From a virus: 53,466 nucleotides of DNA. The notes beneath the pieces were generated by a model. That model searched no databases. It was not told where the DNA came from and saw only the letters and a program-made list of their open reading frames with translations. Positions 2,153 to 14,812 of this stretch are shown here, one piece after another; position 1 is the stretch's first letter, and the number at the start of each line of letters is the position of its first letter. Made by a program: the position numbers and the translations under genes. The stretch is from IMG/VR virus record IMGVR_UViG_3300025534_000001; one strand, 5' to 3'.

Positions 2153-2690
2153 AAGTCTCACCCAAATATTTACCATCTTTGAGCCCAAGAATCCGATCAC
2201 CAGCGTCAAAGGGAATACTGTGGTGATCTTCATAATCAATAATCGCTTGCTTTGCGAGTTCATCTGCCAATTCGTTCCATTGATCACCATTGTGCCCCTT
2301 CACCTTCTCGAATGTTACCTCATGCTTGTCTGCCAGGTGAATGACTTGCATCCAGAGCTCCTGGTTAGCTACAGGATCTCCAGAGGAATTCCGCCAGCCG
2401 TTGCGAAGCCACTTTTTATACCATCCTTGCTGCATGCAGTTGACAATGTACGCCGAATCCGAGCAAATAGTAAACTTCGCCGGCTTAGTGAAGTTCTTCA
2501 AAGCGGAGAGCACCGCCATCAGCTCGGCTTTCTGATTGGTCATATTAGCGCCGGCATTTCGGTAAGCGCGGAGATCTCTTTTGATAACACCTTTGTTCTT
2601 GTACTCGCAGATCAAAATGTAAGCCCAGCCACCGATTTTCTTAGCCGTACATGCTCCATCCGTATACACACGGAGATCCAGGATTTCCAC
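2124..2690 (-). CDS. rnhA: Ribonuclease HI
   Basis: VYTDGAC, NQKAELMAV, SDSAY and KGH..D.WNELADELA motifs. GTG at 2690 lies 6 nt after AGGAGG. Confidence 0.85.
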   Translation of the reverse strand: MEILDLRVYTDGACTAKKIGGWAYILICEYKNKGVIKRDLRAYRNAGANMTNQKAELMAVLSALKNFTKPAKFTICSDSAYIVNCMQQGWYKKWLRNGWRNSSGDPVANQELWMQVIHLADKHEVTFEKVKGHNGDQWNELADELAKQAIIDYEDHHSIPFDAGDRILGLKDGKYLGETYDLAPLLQR

Positions 2691-2741
2691 TTTTTTCCTC
2701 CTTTCTATTTTCAGAGTTAGCCTCACAGTGATGTTGTCTCT

Positions 2742-2770
2742 ATTATAATTGAGGCTAACTCTGAATTCAA
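2742..2770 (-). promoter_or_regulatory. SigA-type promoter (TTGAAT-17-TATAAT)
   Basis: Minus strand reads ttgaattcagagttagcctcaatTATAAT. Confidence 0.6.
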
Positions 2771-2778
2771 CCGTTTAG

Positions 2779-5493
2779 TTACAGTAGTTCGCCTGCGGCA
2801 ATAATCTTCTTGGTGTCGCCGCGGAATTTTCGGAAGGTGTCCAGCGAACATTTCACCTTTTTCTTGCTGCCATCTTCTTGCTTGGCTTCCCAGCTCACAG
2901 TTTGACTTTGGTAATCATAGCTACACAGGCTACCCCAACGATAGCCGATTTCAAAGTCTGCTTCGAACGGGATATCGGCGTTGATCAGATCTTTGGGCAC
3001 AGACGTCATAACTTTCTTTTTCAGCTCCGCGATTTGCGGCAAGAAATTAGCGCGAACTTGCGTGATGATTGAGTCGTGAACAGAGTTCATGACGTAAGCT
3101 ATAGGTATTTCTTTGTTTCCACGTTTCACGTGCATGGTCTCGAGCGTATTAACGATGGTAATGGTCGACAAAAGCGTGCAGTCAGAAGCAGTGCTTTGGA
3201 TTGGGAAGTTGCCTGCTTCATTCATGATCGCCCGTTTGTTGTCCTCCGTAATCAAGCCATAGAAACGTTGACGACCAGTCGGCGTAGTGTAGACGATACC
3301 TTGTAACGGTTCATTTCGACGAGCATCCATAAATGCTTTGGTCTCAGGTTGCGGACGGAACCATTTTAGGATCATCTCACGTGCTTCCTTGATCGAGATC
3401 TTGAACTCCTGAGCCAGAGTATATTCGGTTCTACCATAGGGGATGCCGAAGTTGACAGCCTTGGCTCGAACCCTCTGCTCTTTAGTGAAATCGGGACCAT
3501 ACAGCTCAATAGATACTTCATCATGCAGATCGCGTCCGTCGGTATAGATCTGCTTCAGCCATGGTGATCCACCAAGAACAGCGAGTACGCGGAGTTCCGC
3601 TTGCGAGTAGTCGGCTTGCAGAATCACCCATTCGCCGAACTCTTCCGAATATTCATCATCCGGCTCGGCAACGAAGATGTTCTTGATCATCGAGTCACGC
3701 GGAATGTTGTGCACATTCGGATCCGAGGACGAGAGGCGGCCGGTTTCTGTGCCATGCAGATTGAATGTCGAATGAATCTTGCCGTCTTCTTCCCAAACGA
3801 GCTGATCCAGGCCGAGAACGTAAGTCGAGTAAGCTTTGCTGTCTTTCTTGAACGCATCCAACGTGCTGATAAACCGTTGAACGCGTTCGTCGTCGATGTT
3901 ATCCAAGTACCACTTTCGAGCATCTTTGTCTGCCGACATTTCTTTCTTCTTGTACAGAGGAAGCTTCAGTAAGTGATACATGACATACTTCAGCTGTTGA
4001 TGGCTGTTCGGATTGAAGATACGCCCATTGGTCGGTTTCGGTGGCTTTGTTGGATTCGGCGGCTTCTTACCCTTGCGTCGCCCTTCTTTGTTCCATTTAT
4101 CCATAGCGATCTGAGTCCACCACGTGCAATATTCCTGCACGTCGAATCCGAATTCCAAAGCCATCTGATTCATATCGTCCAGGCGCTGCTCGAGCAGCGG
4201 CTCGAAATGCTCTTTCAGCTCGGCCGTGTATTCTTTGTCAGCAGGCATACCTGCAATCTCAATCTTTGCATAGGCATTGGCACCGCCGATCAACAGCTTT
4301 TTATACAGAAGATCGACATTCCGTCCTTTAGCGCGTTCGGCGTCCAGCATTTCATCCAGAACGCGGCTTACACCCATACCATAGCCAACGTCTCGAGCCA
4401 GATACTTATGCAGAACCGGCTTCGGGATATCTTCATAATCCTGGAAGCCAGGCATGGCTTTGTACTTGTTGATTTCGTGTTCCCACGGCTCGACATACAG
4501 CAGCTCGACGGCAACTTGCTCCAGGTCGTGAGTACCACGCCGTTCATTGATGACGTAGTGCTTCAGCATAGTGTCCTGGTCAACGCGTGCTTTGATACCG
4601 TGCTGCCAATGAAGGAATTTTATGTCGAATTTACCGTTGTGCCATTCCCATTCGATGTTGTCATCTTCCATTAAGGCTTTCCAGTAAGGGTAAACCTTTT
4701 GAGAATGGATAATGTTCTTATCAAAGATGATTGCCAAGTCCGGTTGCCAAGAGAAGCCTTGACAAATGATCTGATGCTTCTTGAAGTTGAAGCCCTTAGT
4801 TTCGATGTCCGTGTAGATGTGGTTGAAATCACGACGCATGTGTTCGATCGCCATAATCGCTTTGTCCTCGTCCGTGATGACATAGTGTGTTACATCCGGA
4901 GGCTTCACTTCTTTACCAGGCGCCCAATTCAGTACAGAAGGAATTTTCTGGAAGTCCGCAGCGAACTCATGGAAAGCACTAGGCTGTTCCATGGCGTATC
5001 GAGGGTGATGTGTGAAGATGACGTAAGCTTGCAGCTCCGCGTCCCAGTAAGGCATTCCGCGACGCGTAGACAATCTGCCAGCGTTTGTTCTGCTCATAGC
5101 GCGCAGTGCGACTTCGCCGAGGACCATTATGACCTTTGGTCGCACGGATTTCACCTGCGCGATGAGTCTGTCGCGGCAGGCGGATAGTTCGAGCATCGTC
5201 GGTTGTTGTCCGTCAACGGGTGTGCACAAAACAGCGTATGTGCCCATCCATTGGTCTCGGCTGAATCCGAGATTTTCGAGGGTGAGGCGGACGAGCTGTC
5301 CGCCCCGAGAATCAAAAGCGTCATTGGCCAAAACATCGGCCATGATAGGTGCTTGCGAAACTACTACAATCGGCCGATGTTCCTGCGGTACGGCCTGTCC
5401 GAGACAAGGCCTACCGTTCAGTGTACACTGTTCGCACTTAGCCAGTGCTTTGAACTGGTTTACGACCACCAATTCGCCCACCTCAACATACAA
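2779..5493 (-). CDS. Family A DNA polymerase with 3'-5' exonuclease and an N-terminal family-4 UDG-like domain
   Basis: The N-terminal ~190 aa are UDG-like (VVVSQAP...GGQ...FTHHP). Exo motif YTDIETKG. Pol motifs DYSQAELRVLA, RVRAKAVNFGIPYG and VHDSI. The TTG start at 5493 is uncertain. Confidence 0.9.
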   Translation of the reverse strand: MYVEVGELVVVNQFKALAKCEQCTLNGRPCLGQAVPQEHRPIVVVSQAPIMADVLANDAFDSRGGQLVRLTLENLGFSRDQWMGTYAVLCTPVDGQQPTMLELSACRDRLIAQVKSVRPKVIMVLGEVALRAMSRTNAGRLSTRRGMPYWDAELQAYVIFTHHPRYAMEQPSAFHEFAADFQKIPSVLNWAPGKEVKPPDVTHYVITDEDKAIMAIEHMRRDFNHIYTDIETKGFNFKKHQIICQGFSWQPDLAIIFDKNIIHSQKVYPYWKALMEDDNIEWEWHNGKFDIKFLHWQHGIKARVDQDTMLKHYVINERRGTHDLEQVAVELLYVEPWEHEINKYKAMPGFQDYEDIPKPVLHKYLARDVGYGMGVSRVLDEMLDAERAKGRNVDLLYKKLLIGGANAYAKIEIAGMPADKEYTAELKEHFEPLLEQRLDDMNQMALEFGFDVQEYCTWWTQIAMDKWNKEGRRKGKKPPNPTKPPKPTNGRIFNPNSHQQLKYVMYHLLKLPLYKKKEMSADKDARKWYLDNIDDERVQRFISTLDAFKKDSKAYSTYVLGLDQLVWEEDGKIHSTFNLHGTETGRLSSSDPNVHNIPRDSMIKNIFVAEPDDEYSEEFGEWVILQADYSQAELRVLAVLGGSPWLKQIYTDGRDLHDEVSIELYGPDFTKEQRVRAKAVNFGIPYGRTEYTLAQEFKISIKEAREMILKWFRPQPETKAFMDARRNEPLQGIVYTTPTGRQRFYGLITEDNKRAIMNEAGNFPIQSTASDCTLLSTITIVNTLETMHVKRGNKEIPIAYVMNSVHDSIITQVRANFLPQIAELKKKVMTSVPKDLINADIPFEADFEIGYRWGSLCSYDYQSQTVSWEAKQEDGSKKKVKCSLDTFRKFRGDTKKIIAAGELL

Positions 5494-6251
5494 AGGATGT
5501 TGTGCCCAACAATATCGTCGTCCAACTTGACATCGTCGTCCAAGATGATATTGCGTCCATTACGCCGCTCCAAGAGGCCTTTCTCCGGATGGAATCGGAT
5601 TCCGTTCGCTGCCGCCCAGAAGGGCAATTGCGAATCAACTCCTCTTATCCAATCATACGCTGAAAGCACCTTAATTTCAACGGGGTTATCATAGATGCCT
5701 AACAGATGATGTACCCGGCGAGTATCAATGAGGTCGTGCGTGCACAGATAATACAGGACGTGTGCACGTCCGATGGCTTGCTCTTTTTTGTCGGAGGTCC
5801 GGTAAAGACGACCCAAACGTTTCGGAATGCCGATAGACCAGACTCCAAGGTCTTTCAGGTCGTTGTACGATTCGATCCATTCTTGCAAGGTCTTTCCTTG
5901 CGGTACGACCATGAAACGGAATTTGCTCGTCAGACCCTCGTGCTTGGCGTAGTACAGGCATTCCTTGGCTCGCTTAAGAGTTGCGGCGGAATCATCCAGA
6001 ACATCTGGAAGAATGATTTCCTTGGCTTCGATGAGCTTAGCCGCACTCACCAACGTATTGAATTCGACCGACGCGCCGAGCTCGATGACGCTGTTGTCCA
6101 GGATCACATAATGACCTGACCTCGATTTGTGCCAGTAGAAATGCCGATATGCTTGATTCGACAGCACCAGATGGGTCAGTGCCATATGGTAGTCCGTAAT
6201 ACCGCCCCAATAGGTCAGGGCGTTCACCGGCGCAATGAAGGCGACTTTCAT
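5460..6251 (-). CDS. dpdA: TGT-fold DNA-guanine transglycosylase-like protein (DpdA-like)
   Basis: ILDNS, VVPQG, SIGIPKR and HHLLGIYDNP...IRGVDSQLPF align to tRNA-guanine transglycosylase core motifs. ATGA overlap with the kinase gene. Sits within the preQ0 gene cluster. Confidence 0.6.
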   Translation of the reverse strand: MKVAFIAPVNALTYWGGITDYHMALTHLVLSNQAYRHFYWHKSRSGHYVILDNSVIELGASVEFNTLVSAAKLIEAKEIILPDVLDDSAATLKRAKECLYYAKHEGLTSKFRFMVVPQGKTLQEWIESYNDLKDLGVWSIGIPKRLGRLYRTSDKKEQAIGRAHVLYYLCTHDLIDTRRVHHLLGIYDNPVEIKVLSAYDWIRGVDSQLPFWAAANGIRFHPEKGLLERRNGRNIILDDDVKLDDDIVGHNILCMLRWANWWS

Positions 6252-6781
6252 ACGTCCAGCTCCTTCAGCAAACGCTTGAATGCCGTCTTAGACGTGACAT
6301 CCGTAGTGTCGAGCTCGATGACGTTTTCCAGCAAACCGTTGGCCTTGAACAGACTGATGACGATCTGGTATTCGCGCTTGATGCGCTCCAGGTCATGCTT
6401 GGTGACGTAGGTCTCGTCGCCGCGTTTGAACAAACGTTCCCACAGCACATCCGTTTTGGCATGCACATAGATCAGATAGAACTTGTCCGTGCTCTGCTCC
6501 AACAAACGGTGCGCATTGATCATCCGTCGGATTTCGTTGATAGAGAACTTGAGACCCTCGATGACGCGACCGTAAACGATATGGTCGATCGTCTTGAAGC
6601 GGTCGAGTACGCAGTCACGGTAGTTCACATCGTTTGCCAGGTCCTTGGCGACCTGTACGACCTCGTCGACGGACTTGCTTTGCGAAAACTTGGCATACGG
6701 AAGGTCCAGGTGCTGGTGCAGAGCTTCTGCGAGAGTGGTCTTGTACGCACCATCGGGCCCCACAAACAAATATTTTGCCAT
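6248..6781 (-). CDS. P-loop (d)NMP kinase-like protein
   Basis: Walker A-like FVGPDGAYKTT. Size and layout resemble thymidylate/dNMP kinases. TAATG overlap with the upstream MazG-like gene. Confidence 0.5.
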   Translation of the reverse strand: MAKYLFVGPDGAYKTTLAEALHQHLDLPYAKFSQSKSVDEVVQVAKDLANDVNYRDCVLDRFKTIDHIVYGRVIEGLKFSINEIRRMINAHRLLEQSTDKFYLIYVHAKTDVLWERLFKRGDETYVTKHDLERIKREYQIVISLFKANGLLENVIELDTTDVTSKTAFKRLLKELDV

Positions 6782-7149
6782 TAGTTGTCCCACTCCTTTT
6801 TCATGTTATCCTGCACAGAAAAACCGCGCTGTTGATATCGAGCAAACCGCTGTTCCAGCTCAGCTTCTTTCTTGACAAAGTAGGCATCGAAGTCCATGCC
6901 AGTCATTTCGATCAGCATAGCGATGTAGATCTGGTTGTCCACGATCTCTTCGAACAAATTCTGTCGCAGTTCTTCACTGACACCGTCCCGAAGCATCTTT
7001 TTAACGCAATTGGCAATTTCGCCGGTCTCACCCGTCAAAGCGTTTGCCAAATACGACAGATTCCACATCGTCGGAGGATTCTGGATGTTGTGTTTGACAT
7101 TGAATTGAGTGACGCGTTCGACGAGTTCCCCTACCAACTGACTCTTCAT
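6781..7149 (-). CDS. MazG-like all-alpha NTP pyrophosphohydrolase (copy 2)
   Basis: LTGETGEIANCVKK ... LFEEIVDNQIYIAML pattern (EexGE / EE..D). Confidence 0.65.
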   Translation of the reverse strand: MKSQLVGELVERVTQFNVKHNIQNPPTMWNLSYLANALTGETGEIANCVKKMLRDGVSEELRQNLFEEIVDNQIYIAMLIEMTGMDFDAYFVKKEAELEQRFARYQQRGFSVQDNMKKEWDN

Positions 7150-7337
7150 TGATTACCTCCGTATCTGGTTACGACTTCTTCGATTACGTCTTCAACCTTG
7201 TCCAATTCTTCAGCGGTGTGTCCACAGTAGTTGCAGGTAAACAGCGTATCGCTATGGCGGAAGAAACTGTCCTTCCCGCATTGGGCACACGCTTTGATCC
7301 TGCGATCACCGTTCCTGATCACAATAAACCTAGCCAT
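7146..7337 (-). CDS. Small zinc-ribbon protein
   Basis: CAQC(x19)CNYC in 63 aa. ATGA-coupled to the MazG-like gene. Confidence 0.6.
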   Translation of the reverse strand: MARFIVIRNGDRRIKACAQCGKDSFFRHSDTLFTCNYCGHTAEELDKVEDVIEEVVTRYGGNQ

Positions 7338-7391
7338 AGCGTTTTAACCCTCTCTTTCCGTAAACTCAGCTTTTCATATCGCGCGAATTAG

Positions 7392-7444
7392 CGCGGAAAC
7401 AAGATAGAAGCGTATAGATCATCGCTTCGATATCTTGTTCCGCG
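7392..7444 (-). terminator. Long compound stem-loop between folE and the Zn-ribbon gene (terminator or attenuator candidate)
   Basis: Outer arms cgcggaaacaagata/tatcttgttccgcg and inner arms gaagcg/cgcttc. There is no clear U-tract. Confidence 0.45.
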
Positions 7445-7451
7445 TTTGAAA

Positions 7452-8093
7452 TTAGGACCGAATCAGATCAAGAACTTCTTTACGGGCCGCACTATTATTA
7501 CGAAAAGCACCCCTCATATACGAGGTTACTGTGGCTGCGCCCGGCTTCATCACACCGCGTCCACACATGCAGTAGTGCTGAGCTTCGATTACCACAGCCG
7601 TGCCGATCGGTTGCAGCTCTTGTTGGATGGCATCGCCGATCTGATTTGTCAGACGCTCTTGTACCTGAAACCGCTTGGCATAGCCATCGACCAGGCGGGC
7701 GAATTTCGAAAGTCCCGTGATCCGTCCGTTCGGAATGTACGCGATGTGCGCCTTGCCGAAGAACGGTGCGAAATGATGTTCACAGAGCGAATTGAACGTG
7801 ATGTCCTTGACCAACACCAGCTCATCGTGATCCACATCGAAGGTCTTGCGCAGATGCAGCGCCGGATCTTCTTCGTAACCCTTCGTGTACTCCAGAAAGG
7901 CTTTGATCACACGGAACGGCGTTTCTTGCAAACCATCACGAGCAGGATCATCCCCGCAGGCGACAATCAATTTGCGAAGAGCACCTGCGGCAGGTTCGAG
8001 GAGCTCGTAAATCTCGGTGTTGTCGATGTAAACGGGGCGCAGTGCTTTGAGTTTCTGGATTTGTTCTTCGGTGAATTCGAATTCGTGCTGCAT
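7452..8093 (-). CDS. folE: GTP cyclohydrolase I
   Basis: [20 protein letters not shown] signature. ATG at 8093 with RBS gagaggag. Confidence 0.9.
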
Positions 8094-8094
8094 A

Positions 8095-8871
8095 TTATAC
8101 TCCTCTCTTGTTGCCCCATACCAGCGTGTGTAATTGCGGCAGGGGACGAACATTGTTCATGATCGGGTCATTGATGACTTTGTCAAACAGCCAGTTCAAA
8201 CTGTTCAGCAAAGCATTGCGGTGTTCAACTTCCGTATAATCCGGGTCATCAGGCGATTTCAGGTTGGCGTTGCCGACAGACAAGTACATATTCACGTGCG
8301 GATATTTGATCCGCACCATGCGGGCAAAGTTCCAGTCCTCTTCGTTGCCTTCGAACACCACGACTTTCAGAGTTGCATAGCACTCGCCAGTAGTGGCGGT
8401 CAGTCGGTTGATGATTTGATCCAGAATGTGCCAATCCGTATTCATGCCGGAGCTTGGAGGCTTCGGACTGATGGTGAGGTCATCAACCAGACGGAACCAA
8501 TCTTGCCAGCGAGAACCTTGTGTTTCCAGACCGACCTTGACATCGTATTGGTGCAGCTTGTGAATGAGATCGAACATTGGCTGGCCGATTAGCGCCGGAT
8601 TGCCACCAGAGATGGTGACATGATCGAAGTTGCGACCGCGCAGACCATTGTGATCTCTTCCAAGGTCGAACAGCCTTTCGATGATTTCGGGGACGGACAT
8701 CATTTTGATTTGGTCTTTGGCACTTCCATCCCACGTAAAGGACGAATCACACCAACTGCACCGGTAGTCGCAACCTGCCGTGCGGATGAACATGGTTTTG
8801 CGACCGATGACAGAACCTTCGCCCTGAATAGTGGGGCCGAAGATTTCAAGTACGGGAATCAGGTTGGACAT
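8095..8871 (-). CDS. queE: 7-carboxy-7-deazaguanine synthase (radical SAM)
   Basis: [10 protein letters not shown]...[19 protein letters not shown] at 8871 with RBS ggag. The ORF-track extension to 9018 was rejected. Confidence 0.85.
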
Positions 8872-9133
8872 TCTCGAGCTCTCCTTCGTCATCATCATCG
8901 AACATAATGGCACTGGATGTCGTGGTTTGCTGAATGTTCCGTACCACTTCTTCGAGTTCGTGAATCCGTTTGTAAGCCTGGTCCAGGTCTTGCAGCAGTT
9001 TGAGCATAGTTTGTGCACTTTTGCCCAAGAAAGGATGACTCAACATTATCTCCGTTTCTTCGAGGAGGAGCTGAAGATCGAAATCGTCGAAATTCCTATG
9101 ATAAGGATGTCGGTTAATCAGGCTATTAGCCAT
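8846..9133 (-). CDS. Hypothetical protein with an acidic C-terminus, embedded between queD and queE
   Basis: 95-aa ORF with RBS gagggg. Overlaps the queE start by 26 nt. Confidence 0.5.
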   Translation of the reverse strand: MANSLINRHPYHRNFDDFDLQLLLEETEIMLSHPFLGKSAQTMLKLLQDLDQAYKRIHELEEVVRNIQQTTTSSAIMFDDDDEGELENVQPDSRT

Positions 9134-9147
9134 TGAACATCAACCCC

Positions 9148-9714
9148 TCAAACATGCGGCCGAAGATCATCGTCGTCGAGATCGCAAGCGCCGGAAGATG
9201 CGTAGTCCGGTCCGTTTTCGAGATCGATGTCTTCTGCGTACACTTCTGCCCAACCGGTGGGCGTTTCCCACATACGCACAGCGTACATCGGAAGGCCAGC
9301 TTTCATGAGACGCCAGCAGATGTAGCGCGCCATGTTCTCGACGGTTGTGCGGAATCCGAGTACGACGTGTTTGGCACCGCTTTCTTTGATTACTTGCAGT
9401 GCTGGCTCGTCTCCGCGCGCAATGAATGCATGATCCAGCTTGTCCACGATCAGCTCGTTCACCGTTTTCTTCAGATCGTAGAAATCGATGACGAAGCCTT
9501 CGTTCGATTTGGCGCGGTAATACGAGTCGACATGCACGCCCTCACCTTGCGGTTCAGGGGTTTGCGGAGTAAAATGCCGCGGCACGCCTTTCAACAGAAC
9601 TTCCAGCTTGTACGTGTGTCCATGCAAATTGGCACACTTTCCGAAGTGACCGGTCAGCTGATGCGCCGCATCGAAGCTGAAGATTTTGCCTACCACAACT
9701 TCATTTTTGGCCAT
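9148..9714 (-). CDS. queD: 6-carboxy-5,6,7,8-tetrahydropterin synthase
   Basis: FSFDAAHQL...CANLHGHTYKLEV pattern. Confidence 0.85.
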   Translation of the reverse strand: MAKNEVVVGKIFSFDAAHQLTGHFGKCANLHGHTYKLEVLLKGVPRHFTPQTPEPQGEGVHVDSYYRAKSNEGFVIDFYDLKKTVNELIVDKLDHAFIARGDEPALQVIKESGAKHVVLGFRTTVENMARYICWRLMKAGLPMYAVRMWETPTGWAEVYAEDIDLENGPDYASSGACDLDDDDLRPHV

Positions 9715-9726
9715 TGTATTCCCTCC

Positions 9727-9879
9727 TTACAATTCGCAGCGTCCCGAAGGACAATCGTTACCGAAAGCGGACGCTTCTGTTGTGATCCAGATTACATCAC
9801 TACCACATTCGGCATGAGTTTCTTCGAAAGTTACCTCTTTAGGAGGTACCTCGCATTTGCATTCAGCACACCACCACAT
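9727..9879 (-). CDS. 50-aa Cys-rich (6 Cys) putative zinc-binding protein, below the ORF-track cutoff
   Basis: Hand translation: MWWCAECKCEVPPKEVTFEETHAECGSDVIWITTEASAFGNDCPSGRCEL. TAATATG junction with the upstream gene. It fills an otherwise empty 165-nt gap. Confidence 0.5.
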   Translation of the reverse strand: MWWCAECKCEVPPKEVTFEETHAECGSDVIWITTEASAFGNDCPSGRCEL

Positions 9880-9880
9880 A

Positions 9881-10132
9881 TTACATCTTCCTTCGCTCTT
9901 TGTCCAGCTTGGCTCTGATTTCTTCTGCTTTAGCCGCGGCGAATTCGCCGAAGTGCATCAGATAAGCTTCTCTGAAGCGAGCCAAGCGCTGTTCACCGAA
10001 ACCGAACTCTTCGCGCAGAGCTTTTTCTGCTGACTGCAGGCTTACGGCCTCGAGGAAGTCGTAAGCTTTGTGGACTTCCTCGATGACCCTATTTACGCCG
10101 AAACGTTTGTCTTTGCGTTGCTTAGACATCAT
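9881..10132 (-). CDS. Hypothetical 83-aa basic protein
   Basis: ORF within the operon, overlapping the MazG-like stop by 11 nt. Confidence 0.55.
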   Translation of the reverse strand: MMSKQRKDKRFGVNRVIEEVHKAYDFLEAVSLQSAEKALREEFGFGEQRLARFREAYLMHFGEFAAAKAEEIRAKLDKERRKM

Positions 10133-10457
10133 CAGCCGTCCTATTTTGACTTCTCCATTCGGAAAAGCCTTCCGGGAAGCGTGCAGCCAGTTTGCTGATA
10201 TTCGCCTGCGCGATTTCGTTGAGGTCGAGGCCGAGCAGATCGGCGATTTCTGCTACGTACCAGAGAACGTCGCCGAGCTCTTTCTTGACCTTGTCGACGT
10301 CCAGTTGGTGTCCGTGACCGGAGAATTTTTTGATGTGCTCACTGACCTCGCCACTTTCGCCGCAGAGGCCGAGAGCAGCAACCATCAGTCGCTTTTCGAA
10401 AGGAAGAGAGGTGTTAGCAGTACGTTGTGCAAGGTCTTGGTACTCCGACAGTTGCAA
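10122..10457 (-). CDS. MazG-like NTP pyrophosphohydrolase (copy 1)
   Basis: QLSEYQDLAQRTA...LGLCGESGEV...ELGDVLWYVAEIA. The likely start is the TTG at 10457, 6 nt after GGGGGTG. The ORF track begins at 10472. Confidence 0.75.
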   Translation of the reverse strand: MQLSEYQDLAQRTANTSLPFEKRLMVAALGLCGESGEVSEHIKKFSGHGHQLDVDKVKKELGDVLWYVAEIADLLGLDLNEIAQANISKLAARFPEGFSEWRSQNRTADDV

Positions 10458-10474
10458 GGTTAACACCCCCAATA

Positions 10475-11167
10475 TTACTTGGTAGGGAACGGAACGCAGT
10501 TACCCCAATCAATGTCGATCGCGTACGGAACCGGATCGATGAAGCCAGCCTTCTTGAACGCTTCGATCCGAAGCTGACAGGTCGGACAGGTACCGCAAGC
10601 CGGCTTCGCACCTCTGTAGCAAGAATGAGTGAGGTGCAGCGGAGCTCGCAGTTTGGCAGCGTGTTTCACGATATCCGATTTGCTGTCCAGGATGAACGGA
10701 GCTTCGACCTGGATTCCGTTGCGCGTGCCGAGCGACAAAGCTTTCGAGATGGCCTCGTAATATTCCGGACGGCAATCCGGGTAGCCAGCATGATCTTCCG
10801 CGTGAGCGCCGTAGTACACGAATTGCGCCCCGATGCTGTCTGCGTAACCAGCGGCGATCGACAGCAGCACGCTGTTACGTGCCGGTACGTAGGTTGCGCC
10901 GACCGTGTTCTTGTCTTGGTTGTCATCGATGTCCGGGCCATTCTTCAGAAGCGAACTGTTTTGGAAGCAGCCCTCGATGTTCCTTTCGAGCAAGCTGTTC
11001 AACTTCAGGTAAACCGCAACAGCCCTAGCGGATTCGATCTCAACCGCATGACGTTGACCGTAGTACACGTTCAGCGCATGTACTTCATCGAACTTCGACC
11101 TGGCCAGAGCCGCCAAGGTGGTCGAGTCCATGCCGCCGGACAACAACACAACTGCCTTAGTCTTCAT
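10475..11167 (-). CDS. queC: 7-cyano-7-deazaguanine (preQ0) synthase
   Basis: VVLLSGGMDSTT PP-loop and a C-terminal CYRG..CGTCPTCQLR zinc site. Confidence 0.9.
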   Translation of the reverse strand: MKTKAVVLLSGGMDSTTLAALARSKFDEVHALNVYYGQRHAVEIESARAVAVYLKLNSLLERNIEGCFQNSSLLKNGPDIDDNQDKNTVGATYVPARNSVLLSIAAGYADSIGAQFVYYGAHAEDHAGYPDCRPEYYEAISKALSLGTRNGIQVEAPFILDSKSDIVKHAAKLRAPLHLTHSCYRGAKPACGTCPTCQLRIEAFKKAGFIDPVPYAIDIDWGNCVPFPTK

Positions 11168-14084
11168 TTGGTTTCCTCCTCATAATTTTTATCAGGTGAA
11201 GGCCATTAGGCGTAAGCGCCCACTGACCGTTCCCTTTCACGTAGATGATGTTGTTCTGCGCCAAGTAATGAACATGGTCGCGCAGGATTTCCGGCTCGTA
11301 GCCAGTCAGCTGTTGCAGCTGTGTGAATGAGAACACCTTCATCAATTTGAAGCCATCGAGCAGTTCCGGATAAGATTGCAGGTATACCTTAACCTTCTCG
11401 AAAGCTTCGGAGCTGAGGAAGCGCTCTTCTCGAACCTTCTCGGAATACTGCTTGTAACCCATAGAAGGTTTGTCGTACGCTTCTTGTTGTACTTCGGCTA
11501 CGAAATGAACGTGCTCCGGCTTAACGATGACTTTTTCGCAGGTCTCGTCCGTGCTGAACACTCGAGCTGCTGCGGCAACTGCCATCTTAGCCAACTTGAT
11601 GCGGTGATTCGCACCTTCAACCAGAGGGATCTTCGAAGTGTATTTCTTGCTGAACTCTGTAGCGTATTTCAGGATCAGTTCCTCAGCTTCCTTCTCGAAG
11701 ATCACCTGATTGTTCTTATGGATGTTACCCAGGTTACGCGACCAAGCCCACAGTACCAAAGTATTGCAGAGCTCGGAAGTATAGCGGTGTGGTACCGGAT
11801 CGCGTTCACTGATGTCCTTGTTTATTTCGCTTTCAGGCACCTCACCGGACGCTGCTGTGACGGCGTGATCAAAACGGGCGATGTCTTCGTTGGCACCGAT
11901 CAGTTCTTGAATTCCTTCAACACCGTACTCCATATCATCCAACGACTTACCTTTGCGAAGGTTAGAGATCCAGATCAGCCGCGTACGCGCATTTGTCTTT
12001 TCCTGCCTGATCTTGGTTAGCTCAGCTACACCCAGTGAACGAATACCGGACAGTTGACCAATCTGCTCGTGAGTCAAGCCAGAGACCTCGTCGATAATAA
12101 ACAAACCGCGATCGTTCAACGGAATTTTACCCCAGGTAAGCATCCAGTTGTTGCCGCCTGCACCTTGCTGTAGACCTCCGAGCAAACCGGCAAATGTTGT
12201 GCCTTCACCTGCGCCGTATTCGCCGAGCTGGTAGTGGTAAGCCATCCACTGTGCTGTCTCGGATTTGCCTGTACGAGTATCGCCCAGGACCAAAACTTCT
12301 AACCAGCCTTTATGTTCGACTTTGTGCTGGAAGATGAAGCGCAAGACGGAATGGTAGCACAAGTCATAGGCAATCATCAGGTCTCGACGTCCGAAGATAC
12401 GAGAAACATTGTATTCCAGGTCGGCATGAATCTCGTTGAATTTTTCTCGGATGGTCTGTCCCGGTGCAACTTGGAATATCTTTAAGCGCTCTTTCATCTC
12501 ATCCGTTAGCCTGAATGTTTCGATGCTAGACTGGATCGGATCAGCCTCGAGCACCAAGAAAGTCGCGCCTTGTTGCCAAGGATCAGTTGTCCGAATCGCC
12601 TTCATCTCGTATGTGCGGTTAGTGTCGATTCGCGTTGTTTTGGTCGGGTAAATATGAAAAGCCGACTGATGGAAGTGCGAATCAGACTGTACCGCGCCCG
12701 GGGCTTTAGCCGTTTGCACCTGCGGCGATATGAGAAGCTCTTCGATGTTTTGCCATTCGTCGACGCTCAGGTCGAAGAGGTCGCAGTTGCGCGGGATTTT
12801 CCCGAGCTGCTTGATGGCATGGTTCTTCTGGTTGTTGTGTGCTTTGATGAACAACAATGTTTCGTTTGAAGTCGGCTTAAGCTCAATGGTCATTTTGCCG
12901 TTCATAGCGAAGATGCCGCATGCCTGGCATTTTTGTGCCTCGGGATTCATCTTCTTACAGGTGAACTTCAGTTTGCGTTCAATTGTAAACGGCTGTTTGC
13001 CTTTACCGACGACCAAAGCGTTGAATTTTACAGGTTTGTTCTGGTATCCCGGGTCAAGAGACTGTGCCAAAGATATGGGTTGGAAAAGTTCGTCTGGCAC
13101 ATCTTCTCCAGTGCTGATGGTTTCATCCTTGGGAACATAAAGCGAAGCCTCTCGCAGAACCATGTCTGCAAAATCTTCTCGAGTGTTTCCCTGGAGGATG
13201 AAGTCAGTGAAGTCAGCGTTCTTGGGTTCAGGAATTGGAAGTCGAGGACACATCCAAATCTCTTTGGCGATTCCGTGAAGTCGCCGAGCGACACGTTCCA
13301 TCCCTTCGCGTCCCTGTGGATCATTATCATAGCACAAATAGACGACCTTTCCCCAAAAGTAATTTTCAGCACCTTTCGGAAAAACGCTGGCTCCGCCTGT
13401 AGAAGAAATTGCCCTAATTCCGAGTTGAAGAGCAAGTAGGGCGTCATGCTCTCCTTCAAAGATGACAATGCGGTCGGATTTGAAGAGCTGCCGGATGGGG
13501 AATAAACGTGCGTTACCATAACCGCCTTCACCTTTCTTTCGGGAGTGGTTGATCATCTTTTGCTTGGAGTCCGTCAAAGAATACTTACGGATGTTAACCC
13601 AATGCCCATAAGGCCCCATGATCGGGATGGTGTAGCGCTTAAGTTTGTCATCCCACCCGATAAAGTACTTCTTAATAGTATCGATCGTGAAGCCGCGCTT
13701 TTTCATGTAAGCCTGTAGGGCTTCTTCGTTGTTGAGCAGAGCCTCGTGAAGCTCCATGACGTACTCGTGCTTGATCGGCAGAATCGGTTCTTTACCTGCC
13801 AGGATTTCATCAACGACCATCTTTGCGACCGGGTACGGCACATCGTACAGCGTTTCGATGAAGCGGATAGCATCCCCGCCACCTTCCGACATCGTACCGT
13901 CTTCGCGTTCTTTGGCGCCGATCGAGCTGTCGCCGAAGTCCTTCCAAAAGCCGGTATTCAAGTTGATGGACATCGAGGGCGTCTTTTCGTCGCGGAAGAT
14001 GGAGTTGACCATCACTTCTCCGGAAATCCCTGGTGAGTCAAGACCTTTGAAAAAGTGCATCCAGAAGTGCTTATATGTGGCCAA
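11157..14084 (-). CDS. Primase-helicase fusion: Toprim (DnaG-like) N-terminal half plus an MCM/AAA+-like C-terminal half
   Basis: Toprim: IFEGEHDALLA...CYDNDPQGREG. AAA+: VLVLGDTRTGKSE and LFIIDEVSGL. The likely start is the TTG at 14084, 7 nt after GGAGG. Confidence 0.75.
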   Translation of the reverse strand: MATYKHFWMHFFKGLDSPGISGEVMVNSIFRDEKTPSMSINLNTGFWKDFGDSSIGAKEREDGTMSEGGGDAIRFIETLYDVPYPVAKMVVDEILAGKEPILPIKHEYVMELHEALLNNEEALQAYMKKRGFTIDTIKKYFIGWDDKLKRYTIPIMGPYGHWVNIRKYSLTDSKQKMINHSRKKGEGGYGNARLFPIRQLFKSDRIVIFEGEHDALLALQLGIRAISSTGGASVFPKGAENYFWGKVVYLCYDNDPQGREGMERVARRLHGIAKEIWMCPRLPIPEPKNADFTDFILQGNTREDFADMVLREASLYVPKDETISTGEDVPDELFQPISLAQSLDPGYQNKPVKFNALVVGKGKQPFTIERKLKFTCKKMNPEAQKCQACGIFAMNGKMTIELKPTSNETLLFIKAHNNQKNHAIKQLGKIPRNCDLFDLSVDEWQNIEELLISPQVQTAKAPGAVQSDSHFHQSAFHIYPTKTTRIDTNRTYEMKAIRTTDPWQQGATFLVLEADPIQSSIETFRLTDEMKERLKIFQVAPGQTIREKFNEIHADLEYNVSRIFGRRDLMIAYDLCYHSVLRFIFQHKVEHKGWLEVLVLGDTRTGKSETAQWMAYHYQLGEYGAGEGTTFAGLLGGLQQGAGGNNWMLTWGKIPLNDRGLFIIDEVSGLTHEQIGQLSGIRSLGVAELTKIRQEKTNARTRLIWISNLRKGKSLDDMEYGVEGIQELIGANEDIARFDHAVTAASGEVPESEINKDISERDPVPHRYTSELCNTLVLWAWSRNLGNIHKNNQVIFEKEAEELILKYATEFSKKYTSKIPLVEGANHRIKLAKMAVAAAARVFSTDETCEKVIVKPEHVHFVAEVQQEAYDKPSMGYKQYSEKVREERFLSSEAFEKVKVYLQSYPELLDGFKLMKVFSFTQLQQLTGYEPEILRDHVHYLAQNNIIYVKGNGQWALTPNGLHLIKIMRRKPNED

Positions 14085-14098
14085 CTTCGAACCTCCTA

Positions 14099-14617
14099 TC
14101 ACACGATTGTCGGGGGCCTATCAGGGAAGTACTCGCCAGATGCAGTACATTCATTGCACACCCATCTGCCTTTGCTAGGGTTCGTACTGCATTGTACGTT
14201 GGTCTTCACCACATTGCCGTTTTCATACTCGAATCGCTGAATACCACAGTTTGGACAAGAATCAGGTGCCCCGTAATTGATGTTCTCCTCCGATGTATGA
14301 ACGCGGTTGCCCCTCGGATTCACGTGCTCCAAAAAATCATCTGGTTCATCAACGATTGTCGGCGTTTGACGAATAGGCGAAGGTGGTGTAGGATCGATCA
14401 TGATTTGAGGAGGACTAATCACAGTTTGTGAAGGAGCCGCCTCATCAGGAAAGTGCTTTGCGTACACCTGCGGGAATTTCTGTCGTGCGAGTTCTTTGGC
14501 GCATTGGCGCAGGTATCCGCTTCTGGACGTGGACATGATGCGGGCCATCTCGTCCAGGAAATCGATGAAGCTGGGTTCTGCGGAGAACGGGATCGGCTTG
14601 GCCCTTACATCGGACAT
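14099..14617 (-). CDS. Ribbon-helix-helix (CopG-like) N-terminus plus a C-terminal zinc-ribbon protein
   Basis: KPIPFSAEPSFIDFLDEMARIMSTSRSGYLRQCAKE, then CPNC...CNEC. ATG at 14617 with RBS aaggag. Confidence 0.6.
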   Translation of the reverse strand: MSDVRAKPIPFSAEPSFIDFLDEMARIMSTSRSGYLRQCAKELARQKFPQVYAKHFPDEAAPSQTVISPPQIMIDPTPPSPIRQTPTIVDEPDDFLEHVNPRGNRVHTSEENINYGAPDSCPNCGIQRFEYENGNVVKTNVQCSTNPSKGRWVCNECTASGEYFPDRPPTIV

Positions 14618-14812
14618 GTCGCATCTCCTTTCTATAAGTATTGGGTCCGGCACGTCTCTCTCTCCAACATATACTCTTCTCCTTATTATATTATATTCTC
14701 ATTAGTATTATAAAAGAATTATATAATAAGGATATAATTATTATCTGTTGAAGAGATTGGACCGTACCTGCACTGGGTACAGGCGGGTCTTGACGTTCTA
14801 CCCTCTACCTAT

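Follow-up and report, generated by a model that had tools for sequence, protein, structure and literature searches.

Gene Fusions and Gene Order Point to a Possible Nucleotide-Level Route to DpdA3-Linked Guanine Replacement in a Viral Contig

Gene Arrangement at the Locus

The sequence under study is the 53,466-base viral contig IMGVR_UViG_3300025534_000001 (below, "the window" means this whole stretch), whose replication genes lie on the minus strand. Together with these genes there is an operon that combines 7-deazaguanine synthesis genes with a DpdA-like gene, a small P-loop kinase gene and two MazG-like genes. An earlier note, made from the sequence alone, had singled out this combination as one that could not be assigned to a described pathway, and we also find it covered by none. 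Fusions between MazG, kinase and DpdA-like domains, described below, suggest that the modified guanine is made at the level of free nucleotides, ahead of DNA copying, and is not, as in the published view, swapped into finished DNA.

The distal part of the operon reads, in the direction of transcription, primase, QueC, MazG1, QueD, QueE, FolE, Zn-ribbon protein, MazG2, kinase, DpdA3 and a UDG-PolA polymerase. MazG1 (10122..10472, or ..10457) starts immediately after the stop codon of QueC. The Zn-ribbon gene (7337..7146) is the first of a translationally coupled unit: its terminal ATGA is the start of MazG2 (7149..6781), whose terminal TAATG is the start of the kinase gene (6781..6248), and the terminal ATGA of the latter is the start of the DpdA-like gene (6251..5460). 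This gene in turn overlaps, at its 3' end, the open reading frame (ORF; 5493..2779) of the polymerase. Direct reading of the sequence thus bore out the description in the earlier note, namely the positions of the genes, their location on the minus strand, the ATGA and TAATG overlaps and the second MazG gene after QueC.

The operon appears to form a single transcription unit; in positions 2600-14800, scans for promoters and terminators returned sites at chance level. Four-base overlaps alone mean little, such overlaps being common in phages. What goes beyond chance is the recurrence of the same gene order in relatives and as fused proteins. When 50,697 phage records were searched with the region by megablast, no match was obtained, and no further nucleotide-metabolism gene was found among 20 additional window ORFs scanned.

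Assignment of the DpdA-Like Gene to the DpdA3 Subfamily

The DpdA-like protein (263 aa; 5460..6251, minus strand) matched only 22 of the same phage records in a tblastn search, with E values from 1e-9 to 9e-26. The matches include founding DpdA3 members, i.e., those of phiST (CGPG_00065/gp042), CP220 (gp056) and immuto (immuto_65), at 26-27% identity, while the closest ones, at 33-34% identity, come from Weizmannia phage Youna2 and Bacillus phages BSP7/BSTP. By these matches we assign the gene, for which a Pfam search returned no match, to the DpdA3 subfamily.

All 93 DpdA3 homologues collected are about 255-265 aa long. Residues D52, N53, E57, D83, R162, H182, G185 and D206 are invariant in their alignment (D52 and D83 in 52 homologues), and no cysteine is conserved in it. 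The best solved match of the DpdA3 profile is bacterial DpdA (7UI4), followed by TGT, and D206, which lies in the sequence VDSQLP, aligns with the nucleophilic Asp of TGT. The AlphaFold2 model of the protein (pLDDT 94.5) retrieved TGT with a probability of 1.0 in a Foldseek search, and a VIA comparison of the model gave a Z of 17.5 and an rmsd of 3.4 Å over 237 of the 263 residues. As modelled, DpdA3 is a minimal TGT-type (β/α)8 barrel that has the full catalytic set and no conserved Zn-binding cysteines. Charge was discarded as a means of judging DNA binding: the median isoelectric points of DpdA3 and DpdA1 are 5.8 and 5.6, respectively, and net charge was likewise uninformative.

DpdA3 also occurs in longer proteins. 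In P0098 (605 aa), it is fused to a C-terminal domain (residues 255-605) that has no Pfam match. In the ESM Atlas this domain lies near nucleoside phosphorylase/AMP nucleosidase (PNP_UDP_1) clusters with a feature score of 0.92, which is a lead only; structural comparison of the domain with MTA/SAH nucleosidase gave a TM of 0.50 by query and 0.76 by matched model. A second kind of DpdA3 pathway fusion, with QueF, is seen in P0094-P0096 (531-568 aa).

The Kinase and the Two MazG-Like Proteins

The only family-level match of the kinase (177 aa; 6248..6781, minus strand) is phrog_761, "thymidylate kinase", at 1.2e-11. No Pfam profile scored above its curated cut-off (25.9 vs. 29.4 for AAA_18 and 21.7 vs. 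27 for dNK), and Thymidylate_kin was missing from the Pfam matches. The nearest solved relative by sequence is YorR of the SPbeta prophage (1.1e-6 in the PDB). The fold of the AlphaFold2 model (pLDDT 96.9) is closest to 3KB2, "YorR in complex with phosphorylated GDP", with a TM of 0.72; the next fold matches are thymidylate and deoxynucleoside kinases, and the probability is 1.0 for YorR and for these kinases. A Tmk-type DRF motif and a LID-like KRGDETY segment are present. Taken together, these features point to a Tmk/YorR-like P-loop (deoxy)nucleotide kinase. Its P-loop (residues 8-16) reads GPDGAYKTT, compared with GPDGxGKTT in the family. The glycine that precedes the P-loop lysine is near-invariant in 46 family members; it is replaced by tyrosine in the window and in one other locus (L015), whereas both P0103, the nearest relative, and YorR of SPbeta have phenylalanine.

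A homologue of the window kinase was also found translationally coupled to PolA in a phage contig (L179:4948-8168), where the 10.4 kb read contain no que genes. The gene for a nucleoside 2-deoxyribosyltransferase is located two genes downstream, after ribonucleotide reductase and cytosine methylase genes, and this locus may be another nucleotide-level base-exchange system.

MazG1 (10122..10472 or ..10457, minus strand) is a canonical single-domain MazG pyrophosphohydrolase. It matches Pfam MazG (PF03819) at 4.5e-12, with 46.5 bits against a cut-off of 22, and phrog_229 at 1.9e-42, and its metal-binding motif ExxE...ExxD reads GESGE...ELGD. Two TTG codons, at 10472 and 10457, are candidate starts; the latter, which the earlier note had chosen, is preceded by a GGGGGTG Shine-Dalgarno sequence. 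A MazG gene follows QueC in three further contigs as well (L172, L173 and L177). In Youna2 (L001:3571-3948) and BSP7 (L002:2978-3382), the MazG1 slot after QueC holds an unrelated conserved ORF of 125-134 aa, for which no family match was found.

MazG2 (122 aa; 6781..7149, minus strand) is a diverged single-domain MazG-like protein. It matches phrog_229 (MazG-like) at 1.3e-12, has neither a Pfam match nor a clear PDB sequence match, and retains the ExxE...ExxD motif as GETGE...EIVD. Three close homologues were found, and the gene has the same position in both contigs read (L172 and L173). Neither MazG1 nor MazG2 had a specific match to MazZ, the best PDB matches being E. coli MazG and integron MazG-like proteins. 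By homology, then, the phage encodes both a deoxynucleoside triphosphate (dNTP) pyrophosphatase and a deoxynucleoside monophosphate (dNMP) kinase, with two MazG-like genes for the former and one Tmk-like gene for the latter.

Fusions and Conserved Gene Order

The window kinase was compared with 1.84 billion representative proteins in an exhaustive phmmer search. Only 78 cluster representatives were retrieved, of which eight are kinase-DpdA3 fusions (417-446 aa) and seven are MazG-kinase fusions (294-331 aa). Domains were parsed with local hidden Markov models (HMMs), and four fusions were verified with Pfam. The order of the domains, MazG, kinase, DpdA3, is the order of the genes in the window.

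The complete gene order of the window, both MazG genes included, is present in two close relatives, L172 and L173, and the order MazG, kinase, DpdA3 is found in these and in L014, L177 and L178. The protein ahead of the kinase in L014 is a tandem MazG. The contexts of the fusions are in agreement with this order: L177 reads QueC, MazG, [kinase-DpdA3], QueD, QueE, FolE; L178 reads MazG, [kinase-DpdA3], QueD, QueE, FolE, QueC; L175 reads QueD, QueE, FolE, [MazG-kinase], QueC; and L176 reads FolE, [MazG-kinase], QueC. A MazG-kinase fusion lies immediately upstream of DpdA3 in L015, and in L180 the position of MazG2 is taken by a dUTPase_2-type enzyme.

One fusion comes from a cultured phage. Protein EVB91_073 of Rhizobium phage RHph_I1_18 (422 aa; L182:4001-5269), annotated merely as "DUF3310 domain-containing", consists of DpdA3 (residues 1-267) and a DUF3310 domain (residues 351-411), and a dUTPase gene comes after it. 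CP220 gp055, in which an HD domain is joined to an AAA_33 kinase, was not counted as a dNTPase-kinase fusion since it could be an RNA-repair-type polynucleotide kinase.

Survey of DpdA3 and DpdA1 Loci

A pattern scan of IMG/VR revealed at least 542 relatives of DpdA3. We surveyed 80 of these loci together with five cultured-phage loci, 85 in total, and used 85 DpdA1 (9g-type) loci as controls. A kinase was counted if it was encoded within ca. 1.2 kb on the same strand, small P-loop kinases being recognised with a local HMM. Such a kinase was present at 47 of the 85 DpdA3 loci. At 19 others, a small DUF3310 protein occupied the same slots, and the two were never found together (0/85). DUF3310 is the Pfam domain of T7 gp1.7 (4.5e-23), a protein that phosphorylates dGMP and dTMP, as stated in PMC11897194 with reference to Tran et al. 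2012.

Thus, one or the other kinase type accompanies DpdA3 at 66/85 loci, compared with 2/85 for DpdA1, where one marginal P-loop match and one DUF3310 match were obtained and the annotated 9g cluster has neither. When only those DpdA3 loci were considered whose flanks measured 2.5 kb or more on both sides (n = 55), 37 had the P-loop kinase, 11 had DUF3310 and 7 had neither. Fisher tests, which ignore relatedness, gave p values of ca. 1e-26 for the enrichment and 8e-9 for the exclusivity. Clustering of DpdA3 at 50% identity yielded 13 lineages, eight of them with the P-loop kinase, two more with DUF3310 and three with neither.

Polymerases of three families, PolA, PolB (27 loci) and PolIII alpha, directly adjoin DpdA3, as seen in L016:5436-7985 and 26 other loci, in L003 and in L177. 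Families of ca. 145-aa and ca. 130-aa ORFs beside DpdA3 proved to be unrelated to MazG, the kinase or DUF3310 in comparisons with Pfam, PHROGs and hhalign.

Other Genes of the Operon

Four genes of 7-deazaguanine synthesis, all on the same strand, are found within 5 kb: FolE, GTP cyclohydrolase I (7452..8153; Pfam GTP_cyclohydroI, 8.7e-70); QueE, the radical-SAM 7-carboxy-7-deazaguanine synthase (8095..9018; phrog_2076, 1.6e-47); QueD, a 6-carboxytetrahydropterin synthase of the PTPS family (9148..9714; Pfam PTPS, 9e-29); and QueC, 7-cyano-7-deazaguanine (preQ0) synthase (10475..11167; Pfam QueC, 3.4e-65). The phrog_2076 alignment of QueE begins at residue 48 and its 55% identity to Youna2 QueE at residue 50, and translation probably begins near residue 49 of the ORF. 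Because QueC is present and there is no QueF, DpdL or DpdN, we predict that guanine of the phage DNA is replaced by preQ0 itself.

The polymerase (2779..5493, minus strand) is of the DNA polymerase A family (Pfam DNA_pol_A, 9.4e-71) and also contains a UDG domain (1.1e-17, residues 39-177) and a 3'-5' exonuclease domain (DNA_pol_A_exo1, 4.4e-11). Its start codon is uncertain and may be the TTG at 5493 or, further downstream, a GTG or TTG in the same frame. The PolA of the relative L172 likewise has an N-terminal UDG-superfamily domain. A recent description of UDG-PolA fusions concerns phages whose genomes are T-modified (PMC13697223); the fusion in the window adjoins a G-replacement module. 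The upstream boundary of the module is formed by a primase-helicase (11157..14102, minus strand) with Toprim and MCM-like P-loop domains (Pfam Toprim_2 and MCM) and 37% identity to the Youna2 primase.

Two small ORFs complete the operon. The Zn-ribbon protein (63 aa; 7146..7337, minus strand) has a CxxC...CxxC pattern, weak Zn-ribbon matches in Pfam and a weak Lar-like match in PHROGs; L172 has a 62-aa ORF in this position. An 83-aa ORF (9881..10132, minus strand) overlaps the end of MazG1. It gave a weak phrog_17690 match (E 2.8e-4) and no match in a Pfam search, and an 82-aa ORF takes its position in L172. The sole sizeable intergenic gap within the module, 114 bases between FolE and the Zn-ribbon gene, contains an imperfect 12-bp inverted repeat, GCGGAACAAGAT ... 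ATCTTGTTTCCGC (window ~7393-7443), with no T-run after it.

A Possible Nucleotide-Level Pathway and Its Alternatives

The observed gene identities, folds, gene order and fusions, and the link of DpdA3 to two unrelated kinase types, can be united in a T4-like, pre-replicative nucleotide-pool pathway that includes MazG, the kinase and DpdA3. At the first step, MazG would cleave dGTP to dGMP and pyrophosphate, which would both remove the canonical competitor and supply the acceptor. DpdA3 would then swap guanine for preQ0 on the mononucleotide, the Tmk/YorR-like kinase would rephosphorylate the modified dNMP, and the host nucleoside-diphosphate kinase (Ndk) would make the triphosphate. Finally, the adjacent phage polymerase would incorporate the modified dNTP, leading to complete replacement. 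In a ribonucleotide variant of the scheme, the exchange would take place on GMP and would be followed by reduction. A MazG-kinase fusion would carry out a futile cycle unless the base changes between its two steps, DpdA3 itself is found fused to this kinase, and two unrelated kinase types take each other's place beside DpdA3; a nucleotide-level pathway is the simplest account of these observations. A route through modified dGTP, mentioned in PMC6884629, had been proposed for CP220 at a time when DpdA3 was not yet recognised.

We infer every substrate in this scheme, and hence also the order of the steps. For this reason, and since some DpdA3 phages have no partners, we consider the pathway to have about an even chance of being correct. 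On a more specific proposition we lean slightly towards doubt, namely that DpdA3 is a (deoxy)guanylate:7-deazaguanine transglycosylase, which would make it the first member of the TGT superfamily with a free nucleotide, and not a polynucleotide, as its substrate, and that complete replacement is pre-replicative and is achieved via a dGTP pyrophosphatase, the base-exchange enzyme and a dedicated kinase.

The earlier note had offered three explanations of the locus: depletion of the dGTP pool, a parallel nucleotide-level route and housekeeping. The nucleotide-level route is the best supported of them. It is probably not parallel to DpdA, as the fusions place DpdA3 inside it, and dGTP depletion fits in as one of its steps. 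The premise of that note, that DpdA modification is post-replicative, holds for the bacterial DpdA, DpdA1 and DpdA2 enzymes tested; the gene here is a DpdA3, for which this role is only a published inference (PMC10516641).

Several observations weigh against the nucleotide-pool pathway. We know of no TGT-superfamily member that acts on a mononucleotide. The DpdA1 controls of our survey come from one narrow lineage, and the loci lack phylogenetic independence. Just ca. 60 residues of gp1.7 are matched by the short DUF3310 proteins, whose kinase activity is assumed. The kinases located downstream of DpdA3 in phages of the CP220/immuto type belong to a different P-loop family, AAA_28, and the kinase link is therefore as much analogy as orthology. 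Given the tyrosine at a near-invariant P-loop glycine, full activity of the window kinase itself is not assured. All DpdA enzymes tested, i.e., bacterial DpdA, DpdA1 and DpdA2, act on DNA (PMC10516641).

MazG-like or PRA-PH-like genes, recognised with local HMMs, were present at ca. 12/85 DpdA3 loci and 5/85 DpdA1 loci, which by locus count is not a clear enrichment, and a general association of MazG with DpdA3 was dropped. Youna2 and BSP7 have the kinase and no MazG-like gene in the 11-15 kb read around DpdA3. We accordingly base the MazG link on the fusions and the clade of the window itself. In addition, neither a kinase nor DUF3310 nor MazG can be recognised in one DpdA3 lineage (L023-L027 and L064, the latter with a CheckV completeness of 100%), and therefore DpdA3 can work without phage-encoded partners. 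A search of five DpdA3 virus records for phrog_761 and phrog_229 found neither.

In the published view, DpdA3 acts on DNA after replication, as a transglycosylase of high efficiency. The kinase and the MazG proteins would then be accessory only: they might trim the dGTP/GTP pool, remove 7-deazaguanine nucleotides that host salvage produces or restore the balance of the pools once guanine has been released. We regard this explanation as rather unlikely but well worth considering. It agrees with the insertion of preQ0 into DNA by all DpdA enzymes tested and with the role assigned to DpdA3 by the authors of the 2023 study (PMC10516641), as well as with the full TGT catalytic set that DpdA3 retains and with the existence of a contig, estimated to be complete, that encodes DpdA3 and neither kinase nor MazG. 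Polymerase adjacency does not separate the two models since DpdA1, which is post-replicative, also adjoins its polymerase in phage 9g. However, the published view gives no reason for the kinase-DpdA3 or MazG-kinase fusions, and it leaves unexplained why two unrelated types of nucleotide kinase are swapped beside DpdA3. The known post-replicative base modifications are partial, whereas the complete substitutions known in phages (hydroxymethylcytosine, hydroxymethyluracil and Z) are pre-replicative, which also weighs against it. In every DpdA3 phage tested, 100% of G is replaced; attempts to detect DpdA3 activity in the E. coli DNA-modification assay failed, whereas the same assay worked for DpdA1 and DpdA2, and DpdA3 activity has never been shown in vitro (PMC10516641).

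A second, improbable alternative is that the P-loop protein is not a nucleotide kinase but an ATPase partner that powers DNA transglycosylation by DpdA3 in the manner of DpdB. Bacterial DpdA reportedly needs ATP hydrolysis by DpdB. An obligate complex would fit the kinase-DpdA3 fusions and the translational coupling, and the variant P-loop might suit an altered ATPase. On the other hand, both the fold and the motifs (DRF and KRGDETY, with YorR, Tmk and dNK at the top of the matches) are those of a small-molecule kinase, the slot is filled elsewhere by DUF3310, the domain of a P-loop-less dGMP/dTMP kinase, and other fusions join the protein to MazG, which is a nucleotide enzyme.

Genes for MazG and thymidylate kinase are frequent in phages, MazG-like genes are about equally common near DpdA1 and DpdA3, and some kinase relatives are not accompanied by que genes (SPbeta YorR, and L179 in the stretch read), yet the third explanation of the earlier note, that these are housekeeping genes that merely lie within a replication module, is very improbable and the least supported in view of the domain fusions with DpdA3 and between the partners, the gene order conserved inside que clusters across different phage types, the difference in kinase occurrence between DpdA3 and DpdA1 loci and the lack of other nucleotide-metabolism genes among the window ORFs scanned.

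The nucleotide-pool pathway is of interest since DpdA3 is the sole enzyme class tied to 100% replacement and its activity on DNA has never been demonstrated. Our literature searches found no paper that gives the kinase or MazG a role or in which DpdA3, or the exchange of 7-deazaguanine, is assigned to the level of nucleotides. With the fusions and with the replacement of one kinase type by an unrelated one in the same slot, there is now a concrete, testable alternative for which the exact proteins are named. If true, the pathway would be a new type of reaction for the TGT superfamily, would explain how a phage replaces every G, would provide a compact gene set for the enzymatic making of fully 7-deazaguanine-substituted DNA and would overturn the published post-replicative model. 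Should it prove wrong, a post-replicative system would still have to include some function for the kinase and the MazG proteins.

Comparison with Known Systems

The gene set of the window is a new variant of the known DpdA3 system. Phages phiST (dDG), CP220 (dADG) and immuto_2-6A (formyl-dPreQ1) share with it the short TGT-like enzyme, at the 26-27% identity given above (PMC10516641). In these phages too, DpdA3 is clustered with FolE, QueD and QueE near a DNA polymerase. In phiST and immuto, DpdA3 has an NTP pyrophosphohydrolase and a small P-loop kinase beside it, and in CP220 an HD-domain/AAA_33 P-loop fusion is encoded upstream of DpdA3 and a small P-loop kinase downstream. Unlike these phages, the window has QueC and no QueF, DpdL or DpdN, two MazG genes, a UDG-PolA fusion and, upstream of DpdA3 and translationally coupled to it, a Tmk/YorR-type kinase. 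Cui, Hutinet et al. (NAR 2023; PMC10516641) noted MazG only in phiST, without a role, and did not discuss the kinase.

The closest cultured relatives are Youna2 and BSP7/BSTP, in which the order is primase, QueC, QueD, QueE, FolE, a small ORF, a phrog_761 kinase, DpdA3 and PolA. Apart from DpdA3, identities to the window are 63-65% for FolE and 60-63% for QueC. In contrast to the window, Youna2 and BSP7 have no recognisable MazG, neither MazG1 nor MazG2, in the stretches read. The relevant genes of Youna2, BSP7 and BSTP are annotated as hypothetical or misnamed.

DpdA1 and DpdA2 phages (9g and CAjan) and the bacterial DpdABC system have the same preQ0 supply genes and an enzyme of the TGT superfamily, and DpdA1 of 9g adjoins replication genes. 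Their enzymes are longer than the 263-aa protein of the window, with 317 aa for DpdA1 in 9g and 436 aa for bacterial DpdA (7UI4), and DpdA1 loci are largely without kinases. Pfam and PHROG scans of the operon proteins gave no match to a DpdB-type ATPase or to DpdC, no dedicated search having been run. The DpdA1, DpdA2 and bacterial systems are proven to act on DNA, and at most ca. 30% of G is modified in them (PMC10516641).

Z-genome phages (S-2L and phiVC8, with PurZ, MazZ and DatZ; PMC8342488) resemble the window in that accessory dNTPases accompany the core enzyme and replacement of a purine is complete. They differ in that PurZ is a homologue of adenylosuccinate synthetase and A is the base replaced. 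As to how their pathway runs, the base-converting enzyme receives its dGMP from a (d)GTP pyrophosphohydrolase of the MazG family, and host kinases are relied on.

The hydroxymethylcytosine route of T4 proceeds through the gp56 dCTPase, the gp42 dCMP hydroxymethylase and the gp1 dNMP kinase. None of the window proteins is orthologous to these enzymes, their activities are predicted, and a TGT-fold base exchange would stand in place of C5 hydroxymethylation. The logic proposed for the window would nevertheless be the same as that of T4: a pyrophosphatase would produce the dNMP, the base would be changed, a dedicated kinase and a polymerase would follow, and replacement would be full.

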